Below are positions 814 to 19,828 of a stretch of 19,828 bases of DNA, piece after piece. A program made the position numbers and the translations under genes. Each line of letters begins with the position of its first letter. Positions within the stretch are counted from its first letter, which is position 1. A model generated the notes under the pieces. It did no database searches, was not told the DNA's origin, and saw only the letters and a program-made list of their open reading frames with translations. This stretch comes from a virus (Duplodnaviria; Heunggongvirae; Uroviricota; Caudoviricetes). The stretch lies in IMG/VR virus record IMGVR_UViG_2874920711_000008, one strand, 5' to 3'.

Positions 814-834
814 CTATATTGATGGACACGAACG

Positions 835-1509: not shown

Positions 1510-1852
1510 TAACGCTGCCGACCGGTACCAGAATCTGGATCATCGCTGGCATCACAGATATGCGTTGTGGCTTCAATGGCCTGGCTTCGAAGGTGCAGAA
1601 CACGCTGAAAGATGACCCGTTCTCCGGGCATATCTTCGTCTTCCGGGGCCGCAGTGGCAAAATGGTGAAAATACTGTGGGCCGATCGTGACGGGTTATGC
1701 CTGTTCGCCAAACGCCTGGAACGGGGCCGCTTCGTCTGGCCGGTGACCCGGAAGGGAAAGTGCACCTGACGCCAGCTCAGTTATCCATGCTACTGGAGGG
1801 GATCGCGTGGCAACATCCCAAACGGACAGAACGGCCTGGCATCCGGATATAA
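1506..1852 (+). pseudogene. tnpB: IS66 TnpB, reading frame broken near 1750-1760
   Basis: MITLPTGTRIWIIAGITDMRCGFNGLASKVQ...ILWADRDGLCLFAKRLERGRFVWP matches the IS66 TnpB pattern. The ORF stops at 1769, but the next frame continues VHLTPAQLSMLLEGIAWQHPKRTERPGIRI to a stop at 1850-1852. The break sits in CCCGGAAGGG. Confidence 0.8.
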
Positions 1853-1871
1853 CCCGTGATAAAACAAGGGA

Positions 1872-3427: not shown

Positions 3428-3448
3428 TCCTTACGCTACGTACTTCTC

Positions 3449-3459
3449 GGGGCGCTTAC
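3449..3459. repeat. IS66 right terminal inverted repeat (GGGGCGCTTAC)
   Basis: Exact reverse complement of 753-763. Confidence 0.8.
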
Positions 3460-3460
3460 T

Positions 3461-3766
3461 GAAAAAGCAGAAACCAAAGGCGCGAAAGCCGCAAAGAACA
3501 GCGCTGCACAGGAAAACCCGGCACCGCTGGCAGACGTTATTGTGGCTGACGGTCAGGCGAATGAACCACGTCCGGCTGAAGACCCGGTTGCTGTACAGGG
3601 TGACGCCCCTGTCCGGCTGAACGTCAGGGCCGTGTCTGAAAACGGGTTCTGGCGCTGTGGCCGTTTCTGGTCACATATCGGTGAGGATGTGGCGGTGAGC
3701 GCTGCGGTTGCCACCCGCCTGATGGCAGAACCGAATCTGATTGTCCGGGAAGCGGAGAAAGGCTGA
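3461..3766 (+). pseudogene. 3' fragment of a phage structural gene (likely the gene upstream of Mu gp36), cut by IS66
   Basis: An open frame runs from the IS boundary (...EKAETKGAKAAKNSAAQENPAPLADVIVADGQANEPRPAEDPVAVQGDAPVRLNVRAVSENGFWRCGRFW...) to a stop at 3764-3766 that overlaps the next start. It has no credible native start; the tracked ORF begins at a GTG at 3542. Confidence 0.4.
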
Positions 3767-4203
3767 TGGGATACATCACGCAGGAAGACCTGTTACGCGC
3801 GGACGGCAATCTTGTCTGGAACATGGCGATTAACCGGGAAACCAACGGGCTGGATGAAGACAAAATCCGTCAGGCCATCAGTGATGCGGAAGCGGAAATT
3901 GATTCGTTTCTGTCCCGCCGCTACCAGCTGCCGCTGGGGGTGACGGAAATCCCGCGCCCGCTGCAACGCGTGGCGGTATCGCTGGCGTTTTACTGGTTAT
4001 CAGAGCGTGACAATCAAATCACGGAGCTGATCCAGAAACGCTACGACGACGCCATTAAAACCCTGCGTGAAATGGCGAACGGCACCCGTGACCTGGGCCT
4101 GCCGACGTATGCCACCCCGGCAGAAACCGACAACGGGAAAATTATTGTGGTGGGTGCCAATGCCCGGCTGTTCACCCGTAACAACCTGAAAGGGGTGCTG
4201 TGA
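3766..4203 (+). CDS. Mu gp36-like phage protein (DUF1320 family)
   Basis: 145-aa ORF, ATG overlapping the upstream stop (TGATG), just upstream of the tail genes. Family assignment is from memory. Confidence 0.55.
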   Translation: MGYITQEDLLRADGNLVWNMAINRETNGLDEDKIRQAISDAEAEIDSFLSRRYQLPLGVTEIPRPLQRVAVSLAFYWLSERDNQITELIQKRYDDAIKTLREMANGTRDLGLPTYATPAETDNGKIIVVGANARLFTRNNLKGVL

Positions 4204-4745
4204 TGGGGATTTCTGTACAGGTCAGCGGTGACCAGCGTCTGGAGGATATCCGCCGCGCCGTTGAAAAGCTGGCAGAGGGTTCATTGCAGTCAGAGCTGCT
4301 GGAAAGCATCGGTGCGGTGGTGGAATCACAGACCCGCCGCCGCATCATCGATGAGAAAACCAGTCCGGGTGGCGAACGCTGGCCGGACTGGTCTGACGGG
4401 TACAAAAAGACCCGCCACGGCAACCAGAGTCTGCTGCGCGGTGAAGGCCATCTGCTGGAGAGTATCCAGTACATCGTGGAAAACCGCGTGGTGCGTATCG
4501 GTTCACCGCTGGATTATGCCCGCATCATGAATGACGGCTTTTCCGGCAGCGTGCCGGTCAGCGCCCACAAACGGCTTATCTCGCAGTGTTTCGGGCGGGC
4601 GCTGAAATATCCGGTCTGGCAGACCGTCGGCGCACATCACCGCATGATGAACATTCCGCAACGTGAATTTCTGGGGCTGTCTTCTGCCAGCCAGCAGGAG
4701 CTGCAACAGGTTATCAGTCATTTCTGGAAGGAGGTTCTGCCATGA
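4203..4745 (+). CDS. Phage virion morphogenesis / tail completion protein (Mu G / P2 gpS-like family)
   Basis: ~180 aa with ...RRRIIDEKTSPGGERWPDWSDGYKKTRHGNQSLLRGEGHLLESIQY...REFLGLSSASQQEL, typical of this family. ATG at 4203 overlaps the upstream stop; stop overlaps the next start (ATGA at 4742-4745). Confidence 0.6.
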   Translation: MGISVQVSGDQRLEDIRRAVEKLAEGSLQSELLESIGAVVESQTRRRIIDEKTSPGGERWPDWSDGYKKTRHGNQSLLRGEGHLLESIQYIVENRVVRIGSPLDYARIMNDGFSGSVPVSAHKRLISQCFGRALKYPVWQTVGAHHRMMNIPQREFLGLSSASQQELQQVISHFWKEVLP

Positions 4746-5353
4746 CAGAACAACGCCCTGAACTGCGCACACCGGGGAGCACCGTTGCGGCCGCAGAGCA
4801 CATTGTGGCCTGGCTGCAGACGGCCCTTCAGGGGGACACCCCTGACCGGGCTGACGTGGTGGAGCGTCACATCGGCCAGTTCAACAGCCCGGATGAAGTG
4901 AAACGCTATCTGTCCGGTCGCACCGGCTGTATCCGTGTCGCGGCCCTGCGTGTCCGGGATATCAACCCGCGCGGCGGGCTGTCCGGTCTGGTCACCTGGG
5001 TGGCTTACATCATGGCGACGGATTCGTGGGGGTATTCCCGCGACGTGCGCTGTGAAGTGCTGGCCGGAAAGGTGATCAAACGCCTGCTGTCGTCGGATGC
5101 CACAGCGGGCATGGGGGCTGAACGCATGGCTGCTGATGTGCGGGCAGACAACATTTACTCCGTCAGCCTCGACGGGCTGGGTGTCACCATGTGGGCGGTG
5201 ACGTGGGAGCAGGAATTCCGGCTGGATGAAGAGATTGATCTCGCCGCGCTCCCGGATTTCCTGCGCCTCGGGGCGACACTGCGCAGCGGCGAACACACTG
5301 AAATTAACGACGTGATCCATGTACGGGGTGACGATGGAACAGAAACTGATTAA
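4742..5353 (+). CDS. Mu gp37-like phage protein (DUF1834 family)
   Basis: 203-aa ORF in the conserved position between the morphogenesis gene and the sheath gene; translationally coupled upstream. Confidence 0.5.
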   Translation: MTEQRPELRTPGSTVAAAEHIVAWLQTALQGDTPDRADVVERHIGQFNSPDEVKRYLSGRTGCIRVAALRVRDINPRGGLSGLVTWVAYIMATDSWGYSRDVRCEVLAGKVIKRLLSSDATAGMGAERMAADVRADNIYSVSLDGLGVTMWAVTWEQEFRLDEEIDLAALPDFLRLGATLRSGEHTEINDVIHVRGDDGTETD

Positions 5354-5518
5354 GCCAGCGCGGGAAAACGTCCGTGTCCGTAAACCGGATGGCGCACATT
5401 TATCCCGGAAGGGGAACGTCTCAACGTCTGCGCTTACTGGCTGCGCCGTGAAGCCGAGGGAGATGTGGAAATAACCACACTTCCGAAAAATAACAACAAA
5501 ACCAGAGGGAAAAAATAA
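5334..5518 (+). pseudogene. Small (~60 aa) phage protein upstream of the sheath gene, frame break near 5405-5415
   Basis: ATG at 5334 gives MEQKLIKPARENVRVRKPDGAHLS..., then the next frame reads EGERLNVCAYWLRREAEGDVEITTLPKNNNKTRGKK with a stop overlapping the sheath ATG (TAATG at 5516-5520). The break is in CCCGGAAGGGG. Confidence 0.3.
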
Positions 5519-6992
5519 TGTCGCTGGGTTCCATTCCTGATGATATCCGCGTCCCGCTTGTCTGGATCGATATCGACAATTCACAGGCGCTGGAGGGTGC
5601 ATCCGCGCAAAGCCGAAAAATTCTGGTCATGGGCCATGCGGTATCGTCCGGCAGCGCAGACGCCCTGTCACTGACCCGTATCACCAGTGACAGCCAGGCA
5701 GACCAGCTTTATGGCAAAGGGTCGATGCTGGCTGAAATGCTCAAAATGCTGCGTCGTGCCAACACGTACACGGAAACCTGGGCGATGCCGGTTGCCGCTC
5801 CTGAAGGCGCTGCCGCAAAAGCCACGCTGACCGTGCTGGGTACAGCGACCGAAGCCGGAACGGTGGCACTGCTGATTAACGGTGTGTCCGTTCAGGTGAG
5901 CGTGAGCGCCGGGGATACGAAGGAAAACATTGCAAAAGCCATTGCTGATGCGGTGACGAAAAAGCCTGCCACGCAGGTGGCCGCTGCGGTGAAGGATGAT
6001 GCCACGGATACCGTGGAGCTGACCGTGAACTGGCACGGCGTCACCGGCAACGGTGCCGACGTTCGCCTGAACTACCACACCGGTGAAGCCTTCCCGGCAG
6101 GTGTGAAGGTGACCGCAACCGCGTTTACCGGCGGCACCGGGACACCGGAAATGGCAGACGCCGTTGCGGCCATCGGCCCGGAGTGGTTTACCGATATCAT
6201 CGCCCCGTTCACCGACACGAAAAGCCTGAACACCCTGCGTGATGAACTGCTGAACCGCTGGGGCCGCTCAAAATGATGGAAGCGCAGCTGTGGACGGCGT
6301 TTTGTGGCACGCACGGGGAAACCGGCACGTTTGGTGAAACCCGCAATGACTGGCTGATTAGCTGCATCGGCACCAACCTGTCGCCGCATCCGGCGTGGAT
6401 GTGGGCCGCGTCATACGGCGCAACGGCAGCGTATCACCTTGCCATTGACCCGGCGCGTCCGCTTCAGACGCTGGTCCTGACCGGCATTCTGCCGCCTGCG
6501 CGTAATGTTCGCTGGGATATGCCGGAACGTAACCTGCTGCTGCATGACGGCATTGCCACGCACATGGTGGACGCCGGGGATAACGTCTGCATCGAGCGTG
6601 AAATCACCATGTACCGGGTTAACCAGTACGGTGATGCGGATGTGTCGTATCTTGATGTGCAGTCACCCGCCACGCTGGGCCGTATCCGTTACATCATTAA
6701 AAACCGTTTCTCGAACCGTTATCCGCGCCACAAGCTGGCGGATGATGACGTGCTGGACTCGCTGGATGCGGGGCAGCCGGTGATGACGCCGAAGCTGTGC
6801 ACTGCAGAGCTGCTGGATATCTGCCAGACCGAACTTCTCCCGGCGGGCCTTGTGGAAAACTTCAGCGATTACAGGGACACGCTTCAGGTGACACGCGACA
6901 GCAGCGATAAAAACCGCCTGAACTTTATCTGCCACCCGAATCTGGTGAACCAGTTGCGTGTGCTGGCAGGCCTGATTCAGTTCAAGCTTTAA
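5518..6992 (+). pseudogene. L: Contractile tail sheath protein (Mu L-like), split into two ORFs near 6270
   Basis: ORFs 5518-6276 (252 aa) and 6273-6992 (239 aa) are adjacent, same strand, together ~491 aa, followed directly by the tube gene; they join through a one-base frame change. Confidence 0.8.
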
Positions 6993-7001
6993 GGGGGCCA
7001 C

Positions 7002-7358
7002 ATGGCAAAAATTCTTGGCATGGCGACCATTCGCGTGAATGGCCGCGAAATTAAAACCGAGGGGAAATCCACGCTGAATCCGGGCGGCTTCAGCCGCACC
7101 CAGCATATGGGCGGCGGCAAGGTCTGGGGTATCTCCAGCAAGATGGCCTCGCCGTCCATCAAGGTAACCATTGCGGCGGCAGCGGATATGGACGTGATTG
7201 AAATCAGCAACTGGGAAGATGTCACGGTGATGTTCTACGGCGACAACGGCCTGAACTACATGATGACGGGTTCCGCCACGGATAACCCGGCAGAGCTGGA
7301 CGAGGATTCCGGCACCATCAGTGCCAACTTTATCGGTGAAAAATGCGTGAAGGTGTGA
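7002..7358 (+). CDS. M: Tail tube protein (Mu M-like)
   Basis: 118-aa ORF immediately after the sheath gene (MAKILGMATIRVNGREIKTEGKSTLNPGGFSRT...); size and position are canonical for a myovirus tube. Confidence 0.75.
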   Translation: MAKILGMATIRVNGREIKTEGKSTLNPGGFSRTQHMGGGKVWGISSKMASPSIKVTIAAAADMDVIEISNWEDVTVMFYGDNGLNYMMTGSATDNPAELDEDSGTISANFIGEKCVKV

Positions 7359-7359
7359 C

Positions 7360-7755
7360 ATGGCCGCAATGGAATTTGAACTGAAACACGGGCTTCTGAC
7401 CGGCAAAGGCACGGCAGATGAAACCCTGCATAAAACCGTGAAACTGCGCGAACTGACCGCCAGTGATGTGATTGATGCGCAACTGGCCGCAGAACGCGTC
7501 GTCATGGGCGGGAACGGAAAGGCGGTGGCCTACTGTTCTGAGGTGCTGATGGGACTGGAGATGATGCGCCGTCAGGTTGCGTCAATCGGTAATATCCCCG
7601 GCCCGCTGGACATGAAACAGCTGCGAATGCTCCACCCGGCAGACCTTGAGCTTATCAGCACGAAAGCGGCTGTGCTGGATGACATGCTTGAGGAGGTGGC
7701 AACGCGGGGGCGAACTGATGCCGCTGGCGTCGGCACTGATGAACCTGCTGGTTAA
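7360..7755 (+). CDS. Tail assembly chaperone (Mu gp41-like)
   Basis: 131-aa acidic ORF between the tube and tape-measure genes, the conserved chaperone position. Confidence 0.6.
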   Translation: MAAMEFELKHGLLTGKGTADETLHKTVKLRELTASDVIDAQLAAERVVMGGNGKAVAYCSEVLMGLEMMRRQVASIGNIPGPLDMKQLRMLHPADLELISTKAAVLDDMLEEVATRGRTDAAGVGTDEPAG

Positions 7756-7855
7756 CCTGTCTTCGCGATTCAGCATTCAGTACCTGGAACAGCTGCCCCT
7801 GCAGCAGTTGTTCCGCCTGATAAAGCAACTGGAGAAACAGCATGGCAACAGGTAA
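7646..7855 (+). CDS. Alternative-frame extension of the tail assembly chaperone (candidate frameshift product, G/GT-like)
   Basis: An ORF in the +1 frame overlaps the chaperone 3' end, encodes a helical-looking peptide (...LMPLASALMNLLVNLSSRFSIQYLEQLPLQQLFRLIKQLEKQHGNR) and ends just inside the tape-measure start (7842). Confidence 0.4.
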   Translation: MSLSARKRLCWMTCLRRWQRGGELMPLASALMNLLVNLSSRFSIQYLEQLPLQQLFRLIKQLEKQHGNR

Positions 7856-9682
7856 CCGTCTCAGCACGGAAATCATGATCAACCTTGCCGGGAACCTGAC
7901 CGCCAAAGCCCGGCAGTACGGTGCAAACATGTCGCAGTTCGCCCGGAACAACCAGAAGGCCATGCGCCTGGTCAAAGCCACAACGGAGGCTGCCGGGCGC
8001 AGTCTGGATGCGCTTGGCAACCGCTACACGGCGATGATTGCCGGGTTCGGTGGTGGTATGACCCTTAAAGGCCTGACAGATTTTGATGCGCAAATCCGCC
8101 GTGCGGGTACAAATGCAAAACTGACCGATGAGCAGGTATCCCGTTTAAGAAAAAACATCCGGGAAACCGCCAGAATGTCAGACATTCGCCTCAGTGCCCA
8201 GGTCTTACTGGAAGGCCAGGATGCACTGTATGGCCTGACCGGTAAGCCGGAATTTGTTGAAAAAAACATCCGCAATCAGGGCTGGCCACGCAGGCATTCG
8301 GGACTGCGCCACAGGATGCCGCGGCACTGATGGCACAGATGTCCGAAAAACAGATTGAAGCGCCTCAGGAGGTTGAAGGCATGTTCGACCGCTTCTACCA
8401 CCAGTTTTCCATTGGTTCGGTTGGTGTGGATCAACTGGCGCGTGTATCAGCAAAACTGTTTTCGATTTATACCGGTGGTGGCAAAGAGGCGATAGCCCAG
8501 TTGGGGCACTTGAACAGATGCTGGCAAAAACAACCGGCTCTGCGGATGAAGCGGTGACCGCGCTGAACAGTATCTGGAGTGAAGTCACCCGAAAAGACAA
8601 TATCAAGTTTCTGAAAAGAAACGGGGTTGATGTGCTTGATCCTGTCACAGGAAAACCCCGTCTGCCTTATGACGTAATCAGAGACGTTGTCAGGCGGGCA
8701 AAATTTAATGAGCAGAACTTGCAGGATGTTTTCGGGGATACTTCCATGCGTGGATTAAGGGCACTGCTCAGTGAAGACGCCCTTCAGCTAACAGAAAAAA
8801 TGATTTACGCCCCGGTTGAATCCGGTGCCATGAGAAAAGCTGCGGAGAAAAACGCCCGGAGTTTTCAGTCTGCGATGCAGTCCCTGAAGAATGAATATGA
8901 GGTTTTTGCTGAAAAAAATCTGGCAAAACCCGTTCAGGACCTGGCGGATGCCATCAACAGCGTGGACCAGAACTGGTTGCAGGTCGGTAAATATATGGCA
9001 ATTGCGCTGGGTGGCATTATCGCCGTACGTAAGACGTACAAGCTCGGTAAAACCATCCACGACATCATGAATCCCAAAGGGAAAGGCAAAGGGATACCCG
9101 GCGGTATTACGGATGTTTTCGGCTCCGGCGTGATGCCGGTGTATGTGGTCAATATGGGCAGTGGCGGGATGAACGGCAATGTCGGTGGTCTGCCGGATGC
9201 GCCGGATTCATCACGCAATCCCGTAACCCACGCAATCCACGAGGTCCGGGTAACCGCGGAGGTAATGCGGGCAAAGGCGCTGGCATCATCGCCGGTGCCC
9301 TGGAATTTTACGATTTTCTGACCACGCAATACGCCCTGCCGGGTGAGATTGACAGTCTTACAAAATCCGTGGCCGGTGATGCCAGCGCCAGCCCGTGGGA
9401 GCGCGAGTTCGCGCAACAAAGCCAGGATAACCAGAAAGCGCTCGAGTCCGTCTGGCGTAAGGTAACGGACTGGTTTAATTCGCTGGGTGACAAGAACATT
9501 GCCGACCCGCGACCGTGGGCAGGTATGCAACCCACACAGAATTATCCTTTCCTTCCGCAACAATTGCAGGGGAAATCCGTGTGGTGGTGGAAGGTGATGC
9601 CCGCGTGAAAAGCGTCAGAGTGGATCAACCCGGCGTCAGACTCAGTGCGCAGGCTGGCGTCACCAGCGTGGAGCAGGGTTAA
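7842..9682 (+). pseudogene. Tail tape measure protein (Mu gp42-like), split into at least 4 ORFs
   Basis: Co-linear ORFs 7842-8330, 8330-8557, 8518-9321 and 9369-9608 in frames 0, 2, 1, 0, plus a final stretch ...VVVEGDARVKSVRVDQPGVRLSAQAGVTSVEQG ending at 9680-9682 (TAATG overlap with the next gene). Total ~613 aa. The adjacent frame reads cleanly across the first break (...GLATQAFGTAPQDAAALMAQMSEKQ...). Confidence 0.75.
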
Positions 9683-10953
9683 TGACAACGAGCAACGGTA
9701 AATGGGACGGGCTGCGCGACGCCTCGTTTCGTGGCGTCCCCTTCTTTCTGGTGGATACGGAGGGCACCGGTGGTCGTCGTGCCATTCCCCGTGCTTATCC
9801 CCGGCGTGAAACCGCCTGGACGGATGATAACGGGGCCGTTCCGGGGCAACAGCAGATTAACGCAAAGCTGCCAGGTAAAAACTTCCGGGATGATTTAAAC
9901 GCCCTTTTAGATGCGCTCAATACCCCGGCCCGGCGAGCTTGTCCACCCGTGGTTCGGGATACAGACCGTACAGGTTGGCAAGGTCACCCATCGCCTCTGC
10001 ACGGAGGAAGACGGCATTGCGTATGTCACCTTTGAAGTGTTTGAGGCAGGCGAGCGCCTGTTCCCGTCTGCGGCGGATAACACGCAGCAGGAAGTGCTGA
10101 CAGGCATTGATGCGGTGAAAGCCGCCATTGACGATGGCGACTGGTTCGGCGCACTCGACGGGCTGGGTGACATGGCCGACAGTTTTCTGGCCGATATGGA
10201 AAACCTTGTGGCTAACCTGCCCACGTTACCGGCAGCACTGAATCAGTGGATGGACAGGCTGAAGCATTTTAAGGCGATGGCCGGAACCCTCATTGCCACA
10301 CCGGGGCGTCTGGTCAGTGAGCTGTCAGCACGGGTGGAAGATATTGCGGGCCTTGTGACGGAACCACCCGAAGCACTGGCGGTTTACACGACATTACGCA
10401 ACCAGTGGGCCGGAGAACGTGCCAGGCAGATTGCCACCGGCGCACTGCCGGAAGATATCACCGTGAAGCCCGGCAGCGTGGCAGACGGCAACCCGGCTTT
10501 GCCATCGGGCTGTCACCGGATTATCAGCCGGTATCTGACAGCCTGCAAAAGAACATTGACGACTTCCGCCAAGTGGTTGTGCTGGGAGCCCTGCTGGGAC
10601 AGGCCAGTGCCGTGGCCTCGATGACGTTCGATACCCGTGATGCGGCGTTATCTGCCGGTGACACGCTGGCGGCTGAACTGCATGAGCAGGCGGTGGCGGC
10701 GGTGGAAAACAACCAGCGGACATTGTGGCGAACGCTGCGCGATTTACGGCAGGCCGTGATTACGGATGCCCGCGAGCGTGCCGCCCGTCTGCCGGAAACC
10801 CGGCAGGTGACGCTGACCACAACCACCTCTGCCGCATTGCTGGCATGGCGCGAGCATGGTGACACACGCCGACGGGATGAAATCGTGCAGCGTAACCGCC
10901 TGCGTCATCCGTCATTCATCCTACCGACGCAACCTGTGGAGATCACCGACTGA
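9682..10953 (+). pseudogene. N: DNA circularisation protein (Mu N-like), frame breaks near 9925 and 10490
   Basis: The N-terminus MTTSNGKWDGLRDASFRGVPFFLVDTEGTGGRRAIPRAYPRRE matches the DNA-circulation N-terminal family, and ...PGELVHPWFG... continues in the next frame. Three ORFs (9682-10035, 9911-10624, 10405-10953) join through breaks in CCCCGGCCCGG and AACCCGGCTTT. Confidence 0.75.
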
Positions 10954-12018
10954 TGGAATCCGTGATTCTTACCGTTGACGGCAAACTGTGGGAAGGCTGG
11001 ACGGAAATGTCCGTCAGCCGTTCCCTGAAGGCGATTGCCGGTGAGTTTGAACTCAGTGTGACAACCCGCTGGTCAGCGGCGGCACCGCGCGTGATTCGTG
11101 AGGGGCAACCCTGCACGGTCAGGCTGGGCGCAGATACCGTGCTGACGGGGTATATCGATGATTTTATTCCCGGCTATGAGGCTGAAAACGTGGAGATTCG
11201 CGTCATGGGGCGCGATAAAACCGGCGACCTGGTGGACTGCTCTGTGGTGCATTCGTCCGGGAAATGGAAAGGCGTGCGGCTTGAACAGGTGGCGGCTGAT
11301 GTCTGCCGCCCGTTCGGGATAACCGTCATCACGGAAACCCCGACCGGGGAGGCATTTGCGTCTGTCGTTCTGGAACAGGGTGAAACGGGCTTTGAACTGC
11401 TCGACCGGCTGGCAAAACAGCGCGGCGTTCTGCTGACGTCTGACGGCGCGGGTAACCTGATTATCACCCGCGCCTCTTCCGTTCGCGCGGGCGTGTCACT
11501 GGTGCTGGGAAAAATATCCTCGCCGCCCGTGGGCGCTTCAGCTGGCGGGAGCGTAACAGCCAGTACATCATCAAGGGCACCACCAGTGCCCGTGGCAAAC
11601 TGTGGGACAGCCAGCCTGCCCGATGGTGGGCGGTCGCCAGTACATCACCGAAGCCCCGGAAATTAACCGTTACCGCCCGCGCATTCTGGTCAATGAAGAC
11701 AGCCTGACCGTGGGCGGGCCAGCATTCGCGGGAATGGTACAAAGCCCGGATGCTGGGAGAGTCCCGCACGACGGAAATCACGGTGGCAGGCTGGCGCGAA
11801 CAGGGCGACAGCGGCCCGCTGTGGCAGACCAACCGCCTTGTCGATATCGACGACAGCATTCAGAACCTGAAAACCACCTGGCTGATATCCGGGGTGACAT
11901 GGACGGATGGCGCACAGGGAGGATGACGGTTCTGGCGCTGGTTCCGCCTGAATCACTGGACATGCCGGAAATGAAAGCGAAGACGAAAAAAACAAAGGCG
12001 GTGGCCACATGGGATTAA
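10953..12018 (+). pseudogene. P: Tail/baseplate protein (Mu P-like, gp44), several frame breaks between ~11500 and ~11930
   Basis: A 237-aa N-terminal ORF, then plausible protein sequence alternating between frames (ENILAARGRFSWRERNSQYIIKGTTSARGKLWDSQ; RQYITEAPEINRYRPRILVNEDSLTVGG; EWYKARMLGESRTTEITVAGWREQGDSGPLWQTNRLVDIDDSIQNLKTTWLISGVTWTDGAQGG; MTVLALVPPESLDMPEMKAKTKK). Stop at 12016-12018. Confidence 0.6.
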
Positions 12019-12544
12019 ACGCAATTGCCCGCCGCCTGCGACTGATGGTTGACCGCGCTGTTGTCCGCCTGGTGTCTGACGGTCTGGCACGGCAGAACCT
12101 GCAAATTCAGACGCTGGCAGATGCCACCGATGACGACGTGGAACGCTTCCAGAACTACGGGTTTACGTCCGTTCCGCCGGAAGGTTCTGAAGCCATTGTG
12201 ATGGCCGTTGGCGGACGGCGTGACGGGCTGGTTGCCATCGCGGTGGAAGACAAGCGATGTCGCCCGAAAGGACTGTCCCCGGCGATGTCAGGGTGTATCA
12301 CCGGGACGGCAAATCACACATCACCCTGAAGGAAAACGGCGTCATTGAAATCACAGGAGAACAATTAGACTTTTCAGGGAAAACGGTAAATCTCACTGCC
12401 GACGAACTGCTGAATATTATCGGTAAACAAATGAAATTCGTCGGTCCCTGTGAATTCACTGAAGATGTCAGAATCAAGGGTAAATCATTCAGCGAACACA
12501 TTCATAAGGACGGCGACAATGAGAATACATCACCGCCCGTATGA
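12009..12544 (+). pseudogene. Baseplate assembly/spike protein (Mu gp45-like), one frame break near 12250-12300
   Basis: ORFs 12009-12329 and 12257-12544 are co-linear and read as one protein (MGLNAIARRLRLMVDRAVVRLVSDG...PGDVRVYHRDGKSHITLKENGVIEITGEQLDFSGKTVNL...). Confidence 0.7.
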
Positions 12545-12991
12545 CGACAGAAATCCGCTGGAATAACATGCTCTCACGGGGTGACATCACCGTCACCCAT
12601 AACGGCCTCTCACGGGATGAGGGCTGGTCACTCAGGTTCTTATCTGCCTTTTCACCGATGCCCGCGCTGATGACGATGATGTCATTCCTGACGGCTCCGG
12701 CGACCCGCGCGGCTGGCCGGGCGACACGTACAGCGATTTTTCGTGGGTTCCCGCCTGTGGCTGCTTGAGCGTGAAAAGCTGACGGAAGATGTCCGCCTGC
12801 GCGTGGAAGATTACGCGCGGCTGTCCATGCAGCCGCTTCTGCGTGCCGGTTACGCCCGTAACGCCACCGTCACGGCCAGCATCATCATTCCTGACCGTAT
12901 TGCCTTTCTGGTGGTGTTAACCCGCCCGGACAAAACCACACTCAGAATCGAAATCACCCGTCGATGGGAGGCCACCATTAATGCCGTATGA
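12541..12991 (+). pseudogene. Baseplate protein (Mu gp46-like, GP46 family), two frame breaks
   Basis: N-terminus MTTEIRWNNMLSRGDITVTHNGLSRDEG, a middle piece in another frame (...DDDVIPDGSGDPRGWPGDTYSDFSW), and a C-terminus in the third frame (GSRLWLLEREKLTEDVRLRVEDYARLSMQPLLRAGYARNATV...). Confidence 0.65.
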
Positions 12992-13953
12992 AATCCCCAC
13001 GCTGGGCAAACTGATTGCCGACGGCGAAAAAGATATTGCGTATGAACTCGGCCTGCAAAAGCTGCCGCCTGTCAGTGTTGAGCAGGCGCTGAACGTGTCA
13101 TTCAGCAGTCAGGTCCGGGATTTATACGACCATCAGAGCTGGATTAAGGACCAGATAATCCCGTCCACCACGTCTGATGATGAAACCATTATCAAAACAG
13201 CAAAGTATGAAGGCGTTATCCGCAAGCAGGCCACCTTTGCCAGCGGGCGGGTGACCTTCACCAGTCAGTCCCCCTTCCGGCAGAAACCCGGATGCAGTCC
13301 GACACGAACCAGGTGTATCAGGTACTCACGTCCGGCGAGGTGCAGGACGGCGAGGTCACCGTCATCGTGCAGGCTGAAGAAGCCGGTGTGGAGGGCAATC
13401 TTGCTGCCGGTGCCGTACTCACCCTGCTGTCCCCGCTGCCCGGAACGGCCAGCACAGGCGCGGTGGCTGAAGGTGGCATCACCGGTGGCGCAGACACTGA
13501 ATCCATCGCAGCGCTGCTGGACCGTCTGCTGTATGTGCGCCGCAATCCACCGACAGGCGGCGCGTTGCATGACTACGTGATATGGGCGCGTGAAGTGCCG
13601 GGCGTCAGCCGCGCGTGGGCGTGGGATGCATGGCACGGCCCGGCACGGTCGGGCTGGCATGGCTTTATGATGACCGGGAAAACATCGTGCCAACCCGCGA
13701 AGACCTGAAGACAATGGAGCAGTATCTGTTCTGCCACAAACACCCGGCCACGGGCGTGATGGTGGGTAAACCGGGCGGCATTGAGGTCTGGCCGGTACAG
13801 GTCAGGCTGAAGAAAGTCAGCATATCCATCCGTCTGACACCGGACAGCCTGGCGAACAGGAGCGCCGTCCGGGCAAACCTGACCGCGTTACAGAAGACAC
13901 TGGCACCCGGTCAGACGCTGCCGGGCGGTTTACCTGTATTGATGGCGTCATGA
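12981..13953 (+). pseudogene. Baseplate J-like protein (Mu gp47-like), split into three ORFs
   Basis: ORFs 12981-13580, 13292-13708 and 13615-13953 are co-linear in frames 0, 2, 1; the real-looking parts (MPYEIPTLGKLIADGEKDIAYELGL...; ...EVQDGEVTVIVQAEEAGVEGNLAAGAVLTLLSPLPGTA...; ...LKTMEQYLFCHKHPATGVMVGKPGGIEVWPVQ...) follow one another. Confidence 0.7.
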
Positions 13954-14051
13954 CACCATTAATCAGCGAACGCACCCGTGAGCTGGAATGCCTGCTGAAG
14001 CATTACCGGCTGGCGGGCACGGAATATGAATATTATTACACCGGAGAATAA
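13950..14051 (+). CDS. Short ORF (33 aa, MTPLISERTRELECLLKHYRLAGTEYEYYYTGE) between the baseplate J gene and the fibre gene
   Basis: ATG overlaps the gp47 stop (ATGA); its own stop lies 3 bp before the fibre ATG. It sits where a Mu gp48-type gene would be but is far too short. Coding status is uncertain. Confidence 0.25.
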   Translation: MTPLISERTRELECLLKHYRLAGTEYEYYYTGE

Positions 14052-14162
14052 TTTATGTTTTATGTGGATAACCCGACGGGTGTGCCGGTAATGCCACCTG
14101 TCGCGGCTGAATTAAGCAAAACAACGCTTTATTTCACCGAAGGCGGGAACGGTATTCCGCCC

Positions 14163-14172
14163 ACGTATCCGG
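14163..14172. repeat. Left copy of the 10-bp direct repeat CGTATCCGGG (target-site duplication of the IS4-family element)
   Basis: Identical 10-mer lies immediately outside both CTGA...TCAG termini (14163-14172 and 15472-15481). Confidence 0.7.
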
Positions 14173-15471
14173 GCTGAGGGATCCCCACAAAATTACTGCT
14201 AATAAACCAGCACCATATTTCGGTAGGTTCTGGACAGATGGTTTAGAACTGTGCTCAGTACTGTTCGTCTTAAAATAAGTGGCGAGTGTCGAAGAACATT
14301 CTTCGCTAACGTCAGATATGAGATAACCCGCCGGGATTTAATGCTGTTAGCCTGATATTTCAGGTGTAACCCTTTATTTTCAGCGTGATAACCGAGTAAC
14401 CACATTACGATAGTGCTCAACGTTGCCAGCAGACTCAGAACCAGAATTCTTCCTGTTGAACGACTTTTGCTGGCCCGAAGACCAAATCCGAAGCGCCCGT
14501 TCTTTTCATCACGAAAGTTTTGCTCTATCTGCATTCGCCGACTGTATAACTTGATGATTTCTCGCGCTCTGAAGTCATTTGTACTGCTGAAGATCAACCA
14601 GGCTTCTTTTGCTGATTTGCTCTGTTCTTTGTCTGTTTTGTTTAAACCACTCTGACCTTTCGAACGTTTCTTTTTTCGCCCTTTTGCCGATTTCTTATAG
14701 GTGTAAAAATGCCCCCGGATGCTTTTTTTCCTTTCTTTAACCAGCCTTCCAGCCCCATATATTCCGGTGTTTTACATTCAGGGCTATCCGACACTTTTAA
14801 CCATCTTTCAGGCGCGTTATCGAGGCAATACTGAACGTTATTTCTGATCCGACCAATAAAATCCCAGCCCAGAGAAGTAATATGGTGAAACCATGCGCTC
14901 TGAAATCCAGCATCCGTGACAATAATAACCCTGGCATCGGGGGCAGGGATTGAGCAAGGGAATCAAGGAAATCATGTTGTATCAATGGATTATTTTGTTT
15001 TTCAGAAGGAACAACCTTACTCAATAACGGAATGGAACGCCCGTCACACAGAAGGCTGGCACGAAGAACATGATGCTCCTGGAGGGATAGCCACTCCAGT
15101 CTACGGCTATTACACATAAAGATAACTGCCGTGTCAGCATTGAAGTGATATTCCTGAAAATCATTGGAATATCGCGATGGAGCGCCTCATTACCCATGAG
15201 GCGATCAATACGTTTGCTCTTATTCTTAACTTGTGCATTACCCGGGAAAAAACGTCCGATACTGGTCAGCGTCAGAGATGCTCCGTTGATTAACGCCACT
15301 GTGGCATCCATCAGGGCATTTTGTCGGTACTGATGAAATGGTGCTAAGGCATCCCGGAAGAAATTCTGACATACTTTATGAACAGGCATAGCAGTGATCT
15401 CATTGAATTGTTGGCACAAATCAGTAGATCACATAATGCTATGTCTGTCTCGTTTTCTGGGGATTCCTCAG
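14173..15471 (-). mobile_element. IS4-family (IS10-like) insertion sequence, 1299 bp, inserted in the tail fibre gene
   Basis: Termini CTGAGGGATCCCC (14173-14185) and GGGGATTCCTCAG (15459-15471) are inverted repeats with one mismatch and resemble the IS10 outside end (CTGAGAGATCCCC). Flanked by the 10-bp direct repeat. Contains a minus-strand IS10-like transposase. Confidence 0.8.
14199..15389 (-). pseudogene. IS4-family (IS10-like) transposase, in at least 4 frame segments
   Basis: Minus-strand segments align in order to IS10 transposase: N-terminal (...TLTSIGRFFPGNAQVKNKSKRIDRLMGNEALH...VDWS), middle (...HVLRASLLCDGRSIPLL...VIIVTDAGFQSAWFHHITSLGWDFIGRIRNNVQY...) and C-terminal (...IFSSTNDFRAREIIKLYSRRMQIEQNFRDEKNGRFGFGLRASKSRS...). 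One break sits at a T7 run (14723-14729). Confidence 0.8.
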
Positions 15472-15481
15472 CGTATCCGGG
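15472..15481. repeat. Right copy of the 10-bp direct repeat CGTATCCGGG
   Basis: See 14163-14172. Confidence 0.7.
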
Positions 15482-16372
15482 GCCGGACTGGTTTAATATT
15501 ATTCAGTCTGAATTACTGGAAATACTCCGGCAGGCAAATATCAAACCGGATAAAAACACAACCGACCAGATTATGACAGCGCTGAAAAAACTGTTTATTA
15601 CGAACAGTGGTTCAGCCGGAGCTATTGCCGGATTAACCGGTCAGAATAATACATTCCCTTATTTTACCGGCAAAGACACAATGGCATTAACACCGCTCAG
15701 TGCGTTTGTGCGCAGTATTCTCGGGAAAAACAGCGCCAGTGAATTTATTAAAGCAATCGGCCTGTCACCAGACATCCTTTTATCAAAAGGACCGGTGACA
15801 GCATTAAGCAGTACAGCACAGGGCAATGCAGGACTTCAGATGTATGAAGTGTACAACAACGGCTATCCCACAGCTTATGGCAATGTTCTGCATCTGAAAG
15901 GCGCGGCAGCATCTGGCGAAGGCGAACTGCTGATTGGCTGGAGTGGCACGAGCGGTGCACATGCTCCGGTTTATATTCGCTCAAGGCGTGATACCACCGA
16001 TGCAGTCTGGTCTGAATGGGCGCAGGTGTTTACATCAAAAGACAGCTTCAACGCAGCATCCGCCACAAAACTACAGACCCCACGCAAAATTAACGGTACG
16101 GCATTTGATGGCACCAGAGATATCACCATCAGCAGCACCGATTCTGGTGCAGTACGTGATTTCAGATACACCAGCGAAGTGTTTCACAATCCCGGTGGTA
16201 ACGAAATTTCCTGGGTATTCCGCGCGCCTTCAGGGTGTATTTTGTCAGGTATTAACGTTCAGGAAACTGGCAAAAGCTCTGCGGATAACATCGGGGGTGT
16301 GTATTACAAACAAACTCAGATTTATATCAATGGCGGATGGCGCACGGTATCCGGCTAATTAAGGAGAAAATA

Positions 16373-16903
16373 ATGGAACTCAGAAACGTCACGCGTTATT
16401 ACCCGGAAGAAATGCCTTATGGTGAAAACATTCAGTATTTCCGCAGTGAAGACGGACAGGATTTTTATGAATCACTGGATAAATTCACGAAGAAATACAA
16501 ATTATGTATTCACCCGGAAACCGGCGTGATTTATTCAATGGCAGAAGACGTGTCTCGTCTTTATCCTGTTGGTTTTACCATTGTGGAAGTGGATGAGCTG
16601 CCGGAGGGTTTTGACATCGAAGCCAACTGGTATTACCGGGATGGCGAAGTACTGCCAGTTCCTGTTGATTATTCGAAACTGGCAGAAAAGCAACGTCAGC
16701 GCTTGCTGAATGAAGCAAAGGAAATCACTTCCGACTGGAAAACCAAGCTGGAGCTGGGCACCATCAGCGACGATGACAAAGTCCGTCTTACGCAGTGGAT
16801 GGAATATATCAAAGCGGTGAAGGTGCTGGATTTAAGCACTGCTACCGATGAAATCTCCTTTGATGCCATCAACTGGCCGGAGCGTCCCGATGCCGCAGCT
16901 TAA
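16373..16903 (+). CDS. Tail fibre assembly chaperone (Tfa; Mu U / P2 G-like)
   Basis: AAGGAG SD 7 bp upstream of the ATG at 16373; ~176 aa; directly downstream of the fibre gene; Tfa-like features (...PEGFDIEANWYYRDGEVLPVP..., C-terminal ...DEISFDAINWPERP). Confidence 0.75.
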   Translation: MELRNVTRYYPEEMPYGENIQYFRSEDGQDFYESLDKFTKKYKLCIHPETGVIYSMAEDVSRLYPVGFTIVEVDELPEGFDIEANWYYRDGEVLPVPVDYSKLAEKQRQRLLNEAKEITSDWKTKLELGTISDDDKVRLTQWMEYIKAVKVLDLSTATDEISFDAINWPERPDAAA

Positions 16904-18296
16904 AGGTGTGATTAAAACGCCCACGGGAGAACCGCTGGGCGGCGCAACCATTACACTGACCTCCCTGCACAACCGTGCAGGGATTCTGAAAGGCGTTTTC
17001 AGCCACGTCACCACACAGAGCGGGGAGTATGACTTCCCCGTTCTGCCGGGCGTGTACAGCGTTCGCCTGACACAGAGCGCACAACGCCTTTCAGAAATCG
17101 GTGTCATTCGCGTTTATGAAGATTCAGCGGACGGTTCGCTGAATGATTTTCTGGGCGCAACTGATATTGACCTGCGTCCGGAATCCCTGAAGAAATTCGA
17201 AGAGCTGGCGCAACAGGCGCAGCAGAGTGCCGGGGCCGCAGCCGGAAACGCACAGCAGACGGCGCAGGATGTGGCGGCAGCCGCAACGGCCCGTGATGAT
17301 GCACAACGTTTTGCGGAGAAAGCCCGACAGGATGCAACCGTCACAGCTGAGGACAGAAAGGCCACTGCGGAAGATGTGACAAGCACAGGAGCAAATGCAG
17401 CCGCAGCCGGACAGAGCGCACAGGATGCCGCAGGTTATGCCCGCGCAGCAGAACAGGCCAAAAATGACATTGATGCTGCGCTGACCGGCACTCTGAAAAT
17501 GGCTAACCATCTGTCAGAAATCGCAGCAGCAGGCGAAAAGGCACAACAGAAGTCCCGGGATAATCTGGGGCTGAAAAGTGCGGCCACGATGGAAGCACAG
17601 AGCGACATTTACGACCGGACAAAAGGCCGTCTGGCGATACCCGGCGCATTCGGCTTTGGGTGTGCTTTTCTGCCTGAAGATGTTATCCGTTTTGACACTA
17701 AGAGTGATTTCCTGGCCTGGGTAAGGAATGCGCTGCCAGGTGAGTATTCCGTTGCTGGCCCCTACGGCATCATCATACCCGACACACGGTTTGAAGGGGG
17801 GCTCAGCATCCGGTGGACTGATGCACGCCCTGAGACAACAGAACCGAGGTACAGAGCCAAATCCCTTACTTTTTACGGCATTAACGGCCCCATTTATCAC
17901 ACCCGCTACTGCTACTGGCCCATATCCAGACTGACTGGCTGGGTGAAAATAAATATAACCACAGAAGATATTATTTACAGAATCGTGGCGAGCTCTGTCC
18001 GCAACAGATGGGGAGACCCTGACATTGGCGGGCTGATTATTGCTGCGTACCAGGGAAAAGCTGACGGTGATAAAGACATCAGACTTGTCAGGGGGCGGTC
18101 ATACAGAGGCTCACGACTGGGACCGGTGGGGATTTCAGCGCCCTGTACTCCCACCGGAACGCATATAGTATACCCACAATATTTCATTACGGGATGTTCA
18201 GAGCATTCATTACCGGGGTCATATTGCGCCCTGTCCGGGGTGCCGGATACATATGTCTCTGGCGCAATGCTTGGGCTTTTTATTCGCACATCGTGA
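16890..18296 (+). CDS. Second tail fibre protein with a lambdoid Stf-type N-terminal domain
   Basis: Intact 469-aa ORF from the ATG at 16890 (GGAG SD upstream; overlaps the tfa 3' end). N-terminus MPQLKGVIKTPTGEPLGGATITLTSLHNRAGILKGVF...VYSVRLTQSAQ...IRVYEDSADGSLNDFLGA resembles prophage side-tail-fibre N-termini, followed by an Ala/Gln-rich stretch. Confidence 0.7.
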   Translation: MPQLKGVIKTPTGEPLGGATITLTSLHNRAGILKGVFSHVTTQSGEYDFPVLPGVYSVRLTQSAQRLSEIGVIRVYEDSADGSLNDFLGATDIDLRPESLKKFEELAQQAQQSAGAAAGNAQQTAQDVAAAATARDDAQRFAEKARQDATVTAEDRKATAEDVTSTGANAAAAGQSAQDAAGYARAAEQAKNDIDAALTGTLKMANHLSEIAAAGEKAQQKSRDNLGLKSAATMEAQSDIYDRTKGRLAIPGAFGFGCAFLPEDVIRFDTKSDFLAWVRNALPGEYSVAGPYGIIIPDTRFEGGLSIRWTDARPETTEPRYRAKSLTFYGINGPIYHTRYCYWPISRLTGWVKINITTEDIIYRIVASSVRNRWGDPDIGGLIIAAYQGKADGDKDIRLVRGRSYRGSRLGPVGISAPCTPTGTHIVYPQYFITGCSEHSLPGSYCALSGVPDTYVSGAMLGLFIRTS

Positions 18297-18306
18297 GGAA
18301 TGCACT

Positions 18307-18872
18307 GTGGAAATTAAAAAAATCATTAATCCCCGTTATACCGAAAGTGGCGCAGTAGACTGTGACGTTTTTTTGACGACAGGGACCAGGCAGTCCCCTA
18401 CACAGCCACCGCTGATGATGTCGCTCCGACGGGTCAGCAAATCTGGCAGGAACTGCAAAGCGGCAAATGGGGTGAGATAGCCCCATTCACTGTGACACCA
18501 GAAATGCTGGAAGCGGCCAGAGAGGCCAGACGTCAGGAAATTGAAGCATGGCGCACAGAACAGGAGGCGAAGCCGTTCACGTTTGAATGGAACGGTCGTA
18601 TCTGGGATGCTGGCCCCGACTCACTGGGCCGCCTGTCCCCGGTGGTCATGCTGGCAAAATCTGTCGCGGCACAAACAAATATGACGTGGAGTGATGCGGA
18701 TAATCAGCAGGTGCAGCTGACGACGCAGGAACTTGAGGAACTGGCCACAGCGATGATACAGGCCATTGTTGAGCGCAACGATGAGATTTATCGCTGTCAG
18801 CGGGAGATGAAAGAACAACTTTCTCTGTTGCCCACACTGGACGAGGTGAGAGCGTTCAGACCAGGCGATTAA
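18307..18872 (+). pseudogene. Tail fibre assembly protein with DUF4376-like C-terminus, frame break at a T7 run (18368-18374)
   Basis: GTG at 18307 after a GAGGA SD reads VEIKKIINPRYTESGAVDCDVF; after the T7 run the next frame continues FDDRDQAVPYTATADDVAPTGQQIWQELQSGKWGEIAPFTVTPEMLEAAREARRQEIEAWRTEQEAKPFTFEWNGRIWDAGPDS... to a stop at 18872. One extra T restores a single ~188-aa ORF. Confidence 0.6.
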
Positions 18873-18894
18873 ATAATCAGTTTGTATAGTTTAT

Positions 18895-18996
18895 GACGAT
18901 CGATAGAATCATATCGATCGTCGGTTTGCATCAAGTGTGATTAAATACCCCCAGCCCTCCGGGCAGCGATATCCTGTTATTACACTGGGGGAAATT
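18895..18996 (+). promoter_or_regulatory. Putative mom-operon regulatory region: GATC-containing palindrome (18904-18931) plus a C/G-rich segment upstream of com
   Basis: Perfect 11-bp inverted repeat GACGATCGATA/TATCGATCGTC around a 6-nt spacer holds two GATC sites (18907-18910, 18925-18928); then CCCCCAGCCCTCCGGGCAGCGATATCCTGTTATTACACTGGGGG up to the com SD. Mu mom control is known to use Dam-methylated GATC sites and C-protein binding; assignment here is by position and analogy. Confidence 0.4.
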
Positions 18997-19182
18997 ATGG
19001 ACTCTGTTCGTTGTAAAAATTGCAATAAATTGCTGTTTAAAGGAGGTTTTAAGCATATAGAAATCAAATGTCCTCGCTGTAAACGTTACATTGTCATATC
19101 GAGTGCCCGGGAGCATCCCACGGAGCTGTATTGTGGGAAAAGAGAAGAAATCACGCATTCTGACAAAACCCTGCGTTATTGA
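18997..19182 (+). CDS. com: Com, zinc-finger translational activator of mom
   Basis: 61-aa [64 protein letters not shown] with a CxxC...CxxC...C arrangement, recognisably Mu Com; GGGG SD upstream; 3' end overlaps the mom 5' end. Confidence 0.85.
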
Positions 19183-19828
19183 GTATGAAGGCCGGATTGT
19201 CGGCTATGGTTCAAGGGAGCTGCGCGTTGAAACCATATCCTGCTGGCTGGCCCGCACAATCATTCAGACAAAGCATTATTCCCGCCGTTTTGTGAATAAC
19301 TCCTGGTTGCATCTGGGCGTATTCAGTGGACGTGATCTGGTTGGTGTTCTTCAGTGGGGATATGCCCTTAACCCCAACTCAGGGCGTCGCGTTGTGCTTG
19401 AAACGGATAACCGGGGCTATATGGAACTGAACCGCATGTGGCTACACGACGACATGCCCCGCAACTCTGAATCACGGGCCATCAGCTACGCGCTGAAAAC
19501 CATCAGGTTACTGTATCCGTCAGTGGAGTGGGTTCAGTCCTTTGCAGACGAACGTTGCGGGCGTGCAGGTGTTGTGTATCAGGCGTCAAATTTTGATTTT
19601 ATTGGCAGCCATGAAAGCACATTCTACGAACTGGACGGTGAGTGGTATCACGAGATAACGATGAATGCGATTAATCGTGGAGGGAAGCGCGGCGAATATT
19701 TACGAGCGAATAAGGAGCGGGCCGTGGCGCACAAATTTAATCAATATCGTTACATCAGGTTCCTGAACAAGCGCGCAAAAAAGCGACTAAACACTAAGCT
19801 ATTCAGGATTCAGCCTTACCCGAAGTGA
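19133..19828 (+). CDS. mom: Mom, DNA adenine modification (anti-restriction) protein; start uncertain (open frame from 19091, GTG at 19133 gives 231 aa)
   Basis: ...[99 protein letters not shown]... is recognisably Mu Mom; overlaps com as in Mu. The stop TGA is the last 3 bases of the window. Confidence 0.85.

Follow-up and report, generated by a model that had tools for sequence, protein, structure and literature searches.

The question raised by this locus is whether the phage genes lying to the right of an IS66-family element are what is left of a prophage, one half of a complete prophage split by the IS, or a contractile tail cluster turned to another use. The window, i.e. the whole stretch of DNA analysed (19,828 nucleotides), belongs to chromosome CP026824.1 (Shigella dysenteriae/boydii group). 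Its positions 3460-19828 hold the late half of a Mu-like prophage, with all genes on the + strand and in the order gp35' (a truncated gp35-like gene), sheath, tube, tape measure, N, P, baseplate, two fibre/chaperone sets and com-mom. Judging from sequence comparison with sister assemblies, this region is very probably what survives of a transposable Mu-like prophage in the Shigella chromosome, now cryptic, truncated by an IS and decaying, in which most of the apparent frameshifts stem from assembly errors.

The assignment to Mu relies first on protein families. ORFs of the window matched Phage_Mu_Gp36, Phage_tail_S, sheath (split), Tail_tube, Gp41_Mu, a tape-measure fragment, GpP/Gp44, Mu_Gp45, GP46, Baseplate_J fragments, Caudo_TAP, phage_tail_N, DUF4376 and Zn_ribbon_Com, and over window ORFs and sister loci together the Mu-specific families gp36, gp41, gp45, gp46, N and P stood in Mu-type late order. 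The tail, baseplate, fibre and com-mom content and order given in a preliminary description of this DNA are thus borne out by Pfam and by the identity of Mom to that of Mu. As that description had also stated, the window was found to contain no repressor, transposase, activator, lysis or head genes, and searches for head, lysis, transposase and regulator genes were also negative over the 10 kb preceding it. The DDE transposase A and the ATPase B, present in complete relatives, were found neither in the window nor in its flanks; the remnant has lost them, which is no argument against Mu-like ancestry. An Rfam scan of the window gave no match.

The left boundary could be placed to the base. Positions 1-752 (- strand) belong to the host gene ygcG, of which they hold the 3' 752 nt; this gene encodes a TPM-domain protein, is 97-99% identical to E. 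coli ygcG and has its first ~103 nt cut off from the remainder by the IS. The latter, ISSfl3 (IS66 family; 753-3459, + strand; tnpA, tnpB and tnpC), is 99.8% identical to the reference element, and its inverted repeats (GTAAGCG.../...CGCTTAC) were read directly. Its tnpC carries a real 44-bp deletion in addition to three assembly-error deletions. Position 3460 is the base directly following the right inverted repeat ...GGGGCGCTTAC, and from there the sequence aligns from nt 6 of a 103-aa gene located downstream of gpT (major head gene) in complete prophages. The left prophage breakpoint is hence the gp35-like gene minus its first 5 nt, ATGAG (3460-3766). Two further readings of the preliminary description agree with this arrangement, namely that the module right of the IS66 is co-directional, as it lies wholly on the + strand and starts directly after ISSfl3, and that the IS cuts a head-proximal gene. 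The same junction was present in at least seven assemblies (CP026824.1, CP027027.1, PSSP01000001.1, CP026836.1, CP026875.1, UYIS01000022.1 and AERN01000091.1), whereas none of the GTDB representative genomes contained it, so that the source does not belong to these species representatives.

Many late genes appear broken in the window. Intact genes are a Mu gp36 (J)-like gene (3766-4203; PF07030, E=6e-31), a virion morphogenesis gene of family Phage_tail_S at the Mu gp37/K position (4203-4745; PF05069), a 203-aa gene without Pfam family at the gp38 position (4742-5353), the tail tube (7002-7358; PF10618, E=1e-38) and the tail assembly chaperone Gp41_Mu (7360-7755; PF23746). Sheath, tape measure, N, P, gp45, gp46 and gp47 are fragmented, mostly through deletions in G/C homopolymers that are private to the source assembly. 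The sheath (5518-6992; 491 aa in sister assemblies) is split by such a 1-bp deletion at 6260, and its 252-aa fragment was found on the source contig only. Likewise, the small DUF2635 gene (approximately 5319-5518; 61-66 aa in sister assemblies) is broken in the source assembly alone by a 1-bp deletion at 5404, with no gene call there. The tape measure (7842-9682; 614 aa in sister assemblies) carries private deletions at 8279, 8503, 9220 and 9569 besides a real in-frame 12-bp deletion at 8967. By comparison with sisters, N, the DNA circularization protein (9682-10953; 424 aa in these assemblies), is interrupted by private deletions at 9927, 9929 and 10492. Further ones affect gp45, a Q/V-type spike (12009-12544; 178 aa in sister assemblies; deletion at 12277), and gp46 (12541-12991; 150 aa in sister assemblies; deletions at 12621 and 12745).

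Altogether, about 23 one-base deletions were counted in the window, all of them in G/C runs and private to the source assembly. If every frameshift were real, the source strain would have undergone massive pseudogenisation, far beyond that of its sisters, and both the strongly fragmented ORF map and the pseudogene build-up for which Shigella genomes are known would fit such a view. However, alignment with the nearest sister, CP027027.1, over 14.4 kb showed only 2 substitutions against 19 gaps, each of the 19 being a 1-bp deletion of the window inside a G/C run; the near-identical ISSfl3 and ISSfl1 copies of the window bear the same type of deletion, and pyrG (CTP synthase), relA and rlmD are split in the source assembly only. 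Genuine decay on this scale is therefore very improbable. Since pyrG, relA and both IS elements are broken in the same way, the private deletions are to be read, from their sequence pattern, as homopolymer assembly errors and not as decay. The CP026824.1 assembly carries roughly one G/C-homopolymer deletion per kb, and its pseudogene or decay calls cannot be trusted without polishing, even for essential genes such as pyrG.

Once these errors are set aside, sheath, tube, chaperone, tape measure, N, gp45 and gp46 are intact, and four real lesions common to sister assemblies are left. Gene P (gp44 baseplate hub; 10953-12018, delimited by sister comparison) is frameshifted by an A6 to A5 change at 11510, common to four other assemblies, with a product of 251 aa, and carries private errors too; it is probably a genuine lesion as judged from its sharing, although, being a homopolymer change, it could represent a recurrent error despite the five assemblies that have it. 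A 568-bp deletion running between TGCCGG repeats (junction near 13919-13924) shortened gp47 (Baseplate_J), removed nearly all of gp48 and fused the former to the tail of the latter (12981-14051); it is present in CP027027.1 and absent from PSSP01000001.1, and gp47 additionally shows private errors at 13270 and 13639. Fibre gene 1 is divided into its first 39 codons (14055-14172) and its last ~293 codons (15473-16358) by ISSfl1, an IS4-like element (14173-15472, - strand; 99.6% identical to the reference ISSfl1) with inverted repeats GCTGAGG/CCTCAGC and an 8-bp duplication GTATCCGG at 14165-14172 and 15473-15480. This identical insertion is common to four assemblies; it had been missed in the preliminary description. 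The tip of fibre 1 is unlike that of the E. coli reference prophage. Downstream, the tail fibre assembly protein (Caudo_TAP; 16373-16903) and fibre gene 2 (phage_tail_N, 468 aa; 16890-18296) are intact, and the fourth lesion lies in a DUF4376 gene (18247-18872), a probable second fibre chaperone, frameshifted by a T8 to T7 change at 18368-18375 that is common to CP027027.1 and PSSP01000001.1.

These lesions bear on the possibility that the head-less tail cluster is, or is becoming, a domesticated tailocin, i.e. an R-pyocin-like killing particle. A contractile tail module without head genes, in which sheath, tube and the other components named above are intact apart from assembly errors, could suggest it, and R-type tailocins (R-pyocins and similar) do consist of contractile tail genes without head genes, as in the remnant. 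However, P is frameshifted, gp47/gp48 deleted, fibre 1 split by ISSfl1 and the DUF4376 gene frameshifted, neither a lysis cassette nor a regulator was found in the window or its flanks, and the additional IS insertions in the module differ from one sister strain to another, which is a pattern of neutral decay. The remnant thus differs from R-type tailocins by its broken baseplate and fibre genes, its lack of dedicated lysis and regulatory genes and its strain-variable decay. A complete and intact tail, baseplate and fibre set is not present, four lesions being common to independent assemblies, which argues against a tailocin, and this explanation is almost certainly wrong. The "complete contractile-tail set" of the preliminary description does not hold even when assembly errors are discounted, and its idea of a tailocin precursor is contradicted by the real lesions in baseplate and fibre genes. 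Its core reading, that the remnant is unable to make phage, is upheld: neither particles nor tails can be formed.

The fate of the missing half was addressed through the phage ends and the host site. Over the 10 kb left of the window only host genes were found (ygcG-eno-pyrG-mazG-mazEF-relA). In CP027027.1 and CP026836.1, ISSfl3 is immediately preceded on its left by a ~211-bp piece of the phage left end bearing three TTCAAGATA motifs, and in un-inverted sister genomes the DNA beyond this left end is host T6SS DNA; head and lysis genes, whose presence just outside the window would have indicated a merely divided prophage, were thus not encountered there. At the other side, where the preliminary description had proposed looking past 19828, a Mu-type right end and host junction do occur ~1.56 kb further on, past an IS4 that sits in the mom terminator. 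This end contains three copies of TATCTTGAA, the inverse of the left-end motifs, and borders on the T6SS gene that also adjoins the left end. The end sequences of the prophage are TATG...TTTA. The flanking host repeat reads AGAA (4 bp) with a mismatched fifth base, 5 bp being expected for Mu. Insertion loci vary among relatives, with sslE/glcA in E. coli and the T6SS gene for the remnant. A chimeric query made of host and left-end DNA detected no complete prophage at this T6SS site in complete E. coli genomes; as this collection contains no Shigella genomes, the result carries no weight. A transposition hot spot at the host/left-end junction was considered and rejected, two different IS630-family elements lying there in the same CTAG tetranucleotide.

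The window copy of ISSfl3 is flanked by GTTTAAGC on the left and TGAAAAAG on the right, a hybrid pair also found in UYIS01000022.1, and the simple insertion into ygcG in CP027027.1 displays a perfect 8-bp duplication of GTTTAAGC. The window copy is a hybrid, recombinant element, and for this reason lacks the 8-bp target duplication. It could then be proposed that the IS only split a complete prophage, whose other half would have been carried to another part of the genome by an IS-mediated inversion; the missing target duplication and the ygcG junction of the source strain, itself an inversion product, are in agreement with this. However, un-inverted sisters have a single ISSfl3 between the 211-bp left end and gp35', with the T6SS gene on both outer sides, and ~16.8 kb are absent from the locus, an outcome that inversion cannot produce. 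Among the exact matches listed, gp36, gp37 and gp38 occurred at one place in the source and at two in CP026836.1, which is a weak argument in the same direction; this last genome hosts a complete, closely related Mu-like prophage alongside the remnant. A homologue search with the head-side DUF2730 protein returned cluster representatives only, at most 97% identical. A mere split is therefore highly unlikely, and the early and head half (~16.8 kb) appears to have been deleted from the locus, because sisters show only the 211-bp left end followed by T6SS DNA. The alternative that ISSfl3 and the tail half moved as one transposition unit was prompted by CP026875.1, in which the IS meets host DNA exactly at the expected start of the phage left end. 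It was rejected as a general explanation, as the true 211-bp left end is kept between host DNA and IS in CP027027.1 and CP026836.1.

From the sister genomes we infer the following history of the deleted, and not split, prophage. The phage would have transposed into a 404-aa gene of the T6SS cluster. A deletion associated with ISSfl3 may then have taken out the stretch between left-end nt ~212 and gp35 codon 2, ~16.8 kb in which the genes for repressor, transposase A/B, Mor/C-type activator, lysis, terminase, portal and capsid lay. Later decay would comprise ISSfl1 in fibre 1, the P and DUF4376 frameshifts, the 568-bp gp47/gp48 deletion and the IS4 in the mom terminator. In the source strain, recombination between the ISSfl3 of the remnant and an inverted ISSfl3 in ygcG would have produced a ~56 kb inversion, which set ygcG beside the remnant and parted the latter from its own left end.

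The module least affected by this decay is com-mom. A cluster of GATC (Dam) sites (18890-18925), aligned with the Mu mom regulatory region and conserved, precedes com (18997-19182; PF10122; 61 aa in sister assemblies) and mom (19133-19828; PF25680; 231 aa), both intact, the last bases of the window being the mom stop codon. Mom shares 219 of its 231 residues (95%) with Mu Mom. Mu late and mom promoters are C-dependent. Because a Mor/C-family activator is missing, the late genes and com-mom would be expected to stay silent in strains without a related complete prophage to provide one; a consensus scan detected no promoter-like site above background at the right end of the IS, which is weak evidence. 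As com-mom is the sole module wholly intact in every assembly while tail genes are decaying, it may be asked whether selection keeps it as a helper-activated anti-restriction cassette, remnants with two ends being natural mini-Mu elements. This is improbable. If true, the Mor/C-type activator of a complete co-resident Mu-like prophage would turn on com-mom DNA modification, and the remnants with both ends (CP027027.1 and CP026836.1) could be mobilised and packaged by the helper.

The biological weight of these observations is small, since prophage truncation, decay and rearrangement driven by ISs are expected for Shigella genomes, and the element is an ordinary cryptic prophage of a kind already known. 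The locus nevertheless offers a clean example of an IS-associated internal prophage deletion followed by inversion between inverted IS copies, and also of sister assemblies distinguishing real lesions from assembly artefacts.

Among known systems, the closest are complete Mu-like prophages of the same lineage, such as that of E. coli FDAARGOS_943 beside glcA/sslE and the second copy of S. boydii CP026836.1. Complete E. coli/Shigella relatives share 93-98% nucleotide identity with the window over 3460-13924 and 16865-19824 and have the same gp35-to-mom gene order. The window differs from them in that ~17 kb are missing at the left (c/ner-like genes, A, B, gam, Mor-family activator, lysis, terminase, portal, protease and gpT), that the fibre-1 tip is different and that it has IS insertions and deletions of its own. 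Mu, D108 and SfMu display the same late order (J-K-sheath-tube-chaperone-TMP-N-P-gp45-46-47-48-fibres-com-mom) and, as in the remnant, repeated binding motifs at their ends. Megablast-level DNA similarity is confined to com-mom (87-88% identity, with the GATC cluster upstream of com conserved). Unlike Mu, the remnant has no invertible G segment or gin, two co-directional fibre/chaperone pairs being found instead, and its end sequences (TATG...TTTA with TTCAAGATA motifs) are different. Finally, the SfMu paper mentions, without coordinates, a cryptic Mu-like prophage of Shigella boydii with gp36/gp37 homologues (PMC4406740). S. boydii 965-58 and S. dysenteriae 155-74 have annotated proteins of the remnant, and that cryptic prophage is likely the present locus.

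The window corresponds to positions 3337787-3357614 of chromosome CP026824.1 (GCA_002949875.1). S. dysenteriae 155-74 and S. boydii 965-58 have named proteins specific to this locus, and citations assign the sister chromosome CP026836.1 to S. boydii. From left to right, the window comprises the 3' portion of host ygcG (1-752, minus strand; 97-99% identity to E. coli ygcG), the IS66-family element ISSfl3 (753-3459; 99.8% identity to other copies, terminal repeats GTAAGCGCCCC... and ...GGGGCGCTTAC) and co-directional phage DNA (3460-19828), the mom stop codon coinciding exactly with the window end. Pfam analysis of the window ORFs returned the late genes listed in the preliminary description, in the order gp36, Phage_tail_S, sheath, tube, Gp41_Mu chaperone, tape measure, N, P (GpP/Gp44), gp45, gp46, Baseplate_J (gp47), fibre 1 with its Caudo_TAP chaperone, fibre 2 (phage_tail_N) with a DUF4376 protein, Com and Mom. 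That inventory overlooked a second IS interrupting the phage DNA, the IS4-like ISSfl1 (14173-15472, minus strand; 8-bp duplication GTATCCGG). The prophage break at 3460 proved exact: alignment with complete E. coli Mu-like prophages placed the first phage base of the window at nt 6 of the 103-aa gene following gpT, the major head gene of these prophages.

Had the IS merely split a complete prophage, head, lysis and regulatory genes could be expected beyond the window. Its left flank consisted of host genes (eno, pyrG, mazG, mazEF, relA and rlmD), with no head, lysis or regulatory gene to the left of the window, and the earlier reading of a headless prophage stands. Beyond 19828, about 35 nt past the mom stop, the loop of the hairpin that forms the mom terminator contains an IS4 element (14424-15850 of flanking stretch L006; 12-bp duplication GCGGTTAATGCC). 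The source chromosome and CP027027.1 share this insertion, which PSSP01000001.1 lacks. The phage right end beyond this element is intact, with three TATCTTGAA motifs and the final bases ...TTTTGCGCGCTTTA, and joins a host gene encoding a 404-aa T6SS protein of the KPHS_23130 family (L006 15952 onward; L025 8392-9606), within the cluster vgrG ... tssM-tssA-PAAR. Since the prophage lies inside this gene, the T6SS locus is disrupted in this Shigella lineage. In the uninterrupted E. coli cluster, the host sequences that flank the remnant are contiguous within one 404-aa gene.

The other phage extremity survives in CP027027.1 and CP026836.1, where the left repeat of ISSfl3 is separated from host DNA by about 211 bp of retained phage left end. 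This segment reads TATGACTAGGTAATTTATTCAAGATA..., and its three TTCAAGATA motifs are inverse to those at the right end; the CTAG at its nt 6-9 received a different IS630-family element in each of the two genomes (L012 5587-6738 and L044 1882-2808). The 8-mers beside ISSfl3 in these chromosomes are unlike each other (CTCTAAAT vs TGAAAAAG), and one IS thus marks an internal deletion of about 16.8 kb, from nt ~212 of the left end to codon 2 of gp35. Two direct ISSfl3 copies may have recombined, or an intramolecular transposition may have caused the loss. In CP026875.1 (L019 5620-5640), these 211 bp are missing with base precision: host DNA runs up to the starting point of the phage left end, and the ISSfl3 left repeat follows directly.

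CP027027.1 carries a second ISSfl3 in ygcG, flanked by a perfect 8-bp duplication (GTTTAAGC), about 56 kb from the remnant copy and in inverted orientation. A single IS with ygcG on its left and gp35' (the gp35-like gene lacking its first 5 nt) on its right occurs in the window and, independently, in UYIS01000022.1; this arrangement is the product that an inversion between two ISSfl3 copies would be expected to generate. The tnpC gene of ISSfl3 has lost 44 bp between TCCCCGGG repeats (2209-2218), a real deletion common to the copies of the sublineage. It is identical in the ygcG and remnant copies of CP027027.1, so both copies are defective, through either a common origin or homogenisation.

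Frameshifts required separate treatment. Relative to the E. coli reference prophage, the stretch 3460-13924 shows 19 indels, of which 18 are single bases missing from G or C runs of the window. Over 14.4 kb, 2 substitutions and 19 gaps separate the window from its closest sister, CP027027.1, every gap being a one-base G/C-run deletion on the window side, and a multi-assembly table showed nearly all of these deletions to be private to the window. The same defect affects its IS copies (three in ISSfl3, two or three in ISSfl1), which are otherwise near-identical to other copies. Host genes are split likewise in CP026824.1 only (pyrG into 83+449 aa, relA into 556+189 aa, rlmD into 188+255 aa) and are whole in four other assemblies of the region. 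The sheath (491 aa), tape measure (614 aa), N (424 aa), gp45 (178 aa) and gp46 (150 aa) are whole in sister assemblies, and a 252-aa sheath fragment is known from the CP026824.1 contig only. Given these private deletions, split host genes and whole sister genes, we interpret some 23 frameshifts in the window as homopolymer under-calls. CP026824.1 shows about one 1-bp G/C-homopolymer deletion per kb across the window and its flanks (L005/L015/L020); pseudogene calls drawn from it are unreliable, and the frameshift picture obtained from the window alone had to be corrected, most breaks being assembly artefacts. Independent assemblies, PSSP01000001.1 (L008/L046) and S. boydii 965-58, have a sheath split into 337+161 aa, probably a real lineage-specific frameshift other than the window's private one.

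Lesions were counted as real when common to independent assemblies. The ISSfl3/gp35' junction at 3460 is found in at least seven assemblies. Four have ISSfl1 inserted in fibre gene 1 at codon 40, among them the S. boydii/dysenteriae assemblies CP027027.1, PSSP01000001.1 and AKNA01000002.1. An A6->A5 change in P (11510), probably real and yielding a 251-aa instead of a 356-aa product, is common to five assemblies and a T8->T7 change in the DUF4376 gene (18368) to three. A 568-bp deletion between TGCCGG repeats, which takes away the terminal part of gp47 together with most of gp48, is present in CP027027.1 and not in PSSP01000001.1; the tape measure has a 12-bp in-frame deletion. Additional IS insertions in the tail module differ among sister assemblies. 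The contractile-tail set, previously described as complete and likened to a tailocin precursor, is thus incomplete, the shared lesions damaging baseplate hub, wedge and fibre functions. Identity as a tailocin was rejected on the broken baseplate and incomplete tail set; the pattern is one of neutral decay, not domestication.

Mu late operons and Pmom require an activator of the C/Mor family, and mom translation in Mu requires Com. With the activator gene absent from the locus, expression of the remnant genes would be expected only where a related complete prophage provides the activator. A consensus scan of the ISSfl3 right end gave no promoter-like site. In S. boydii CP026836.1, a complete, closely related Mu-like copy is present in the same genome as the remnant. 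For the source chromosome, exact look-ups of three proteins returned one place each among the matches listed, which argues weakly against a close second copy.

The late genes, com-mom and end motifs of a Mu-like transposable prophage were all found in the remnant, A/B being missing through loss; it is descended from, and works like, such a prophage. Mu, D108 and SfMu showed no megablast-level similarity to the window outside com-mom. Within this region, 219 of the 231 residues of Mu Mom are identical in the remnant's Mom, and a cluster of GATC sites ahead of com aligns with the Dam/OxyR region of Mu. At the DNA level, the distal portion of fibre gene 1 and its Caudo_TAP chaperone gene (15736-16865) are unrelated to the corresponding part of an E. 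coli prophage (L001 28573-29810) otherwise 98% identical to the window, indicating exchange of a fibre-tip module. The element is of an already known kind, and the SfMu paper (PMC4406740) mentions a cryptic Mu-like prophage of S. boydii. Complete Mu-like prophages of about 33 kb in E. coli share 93-98% identity with the phage part of the window.
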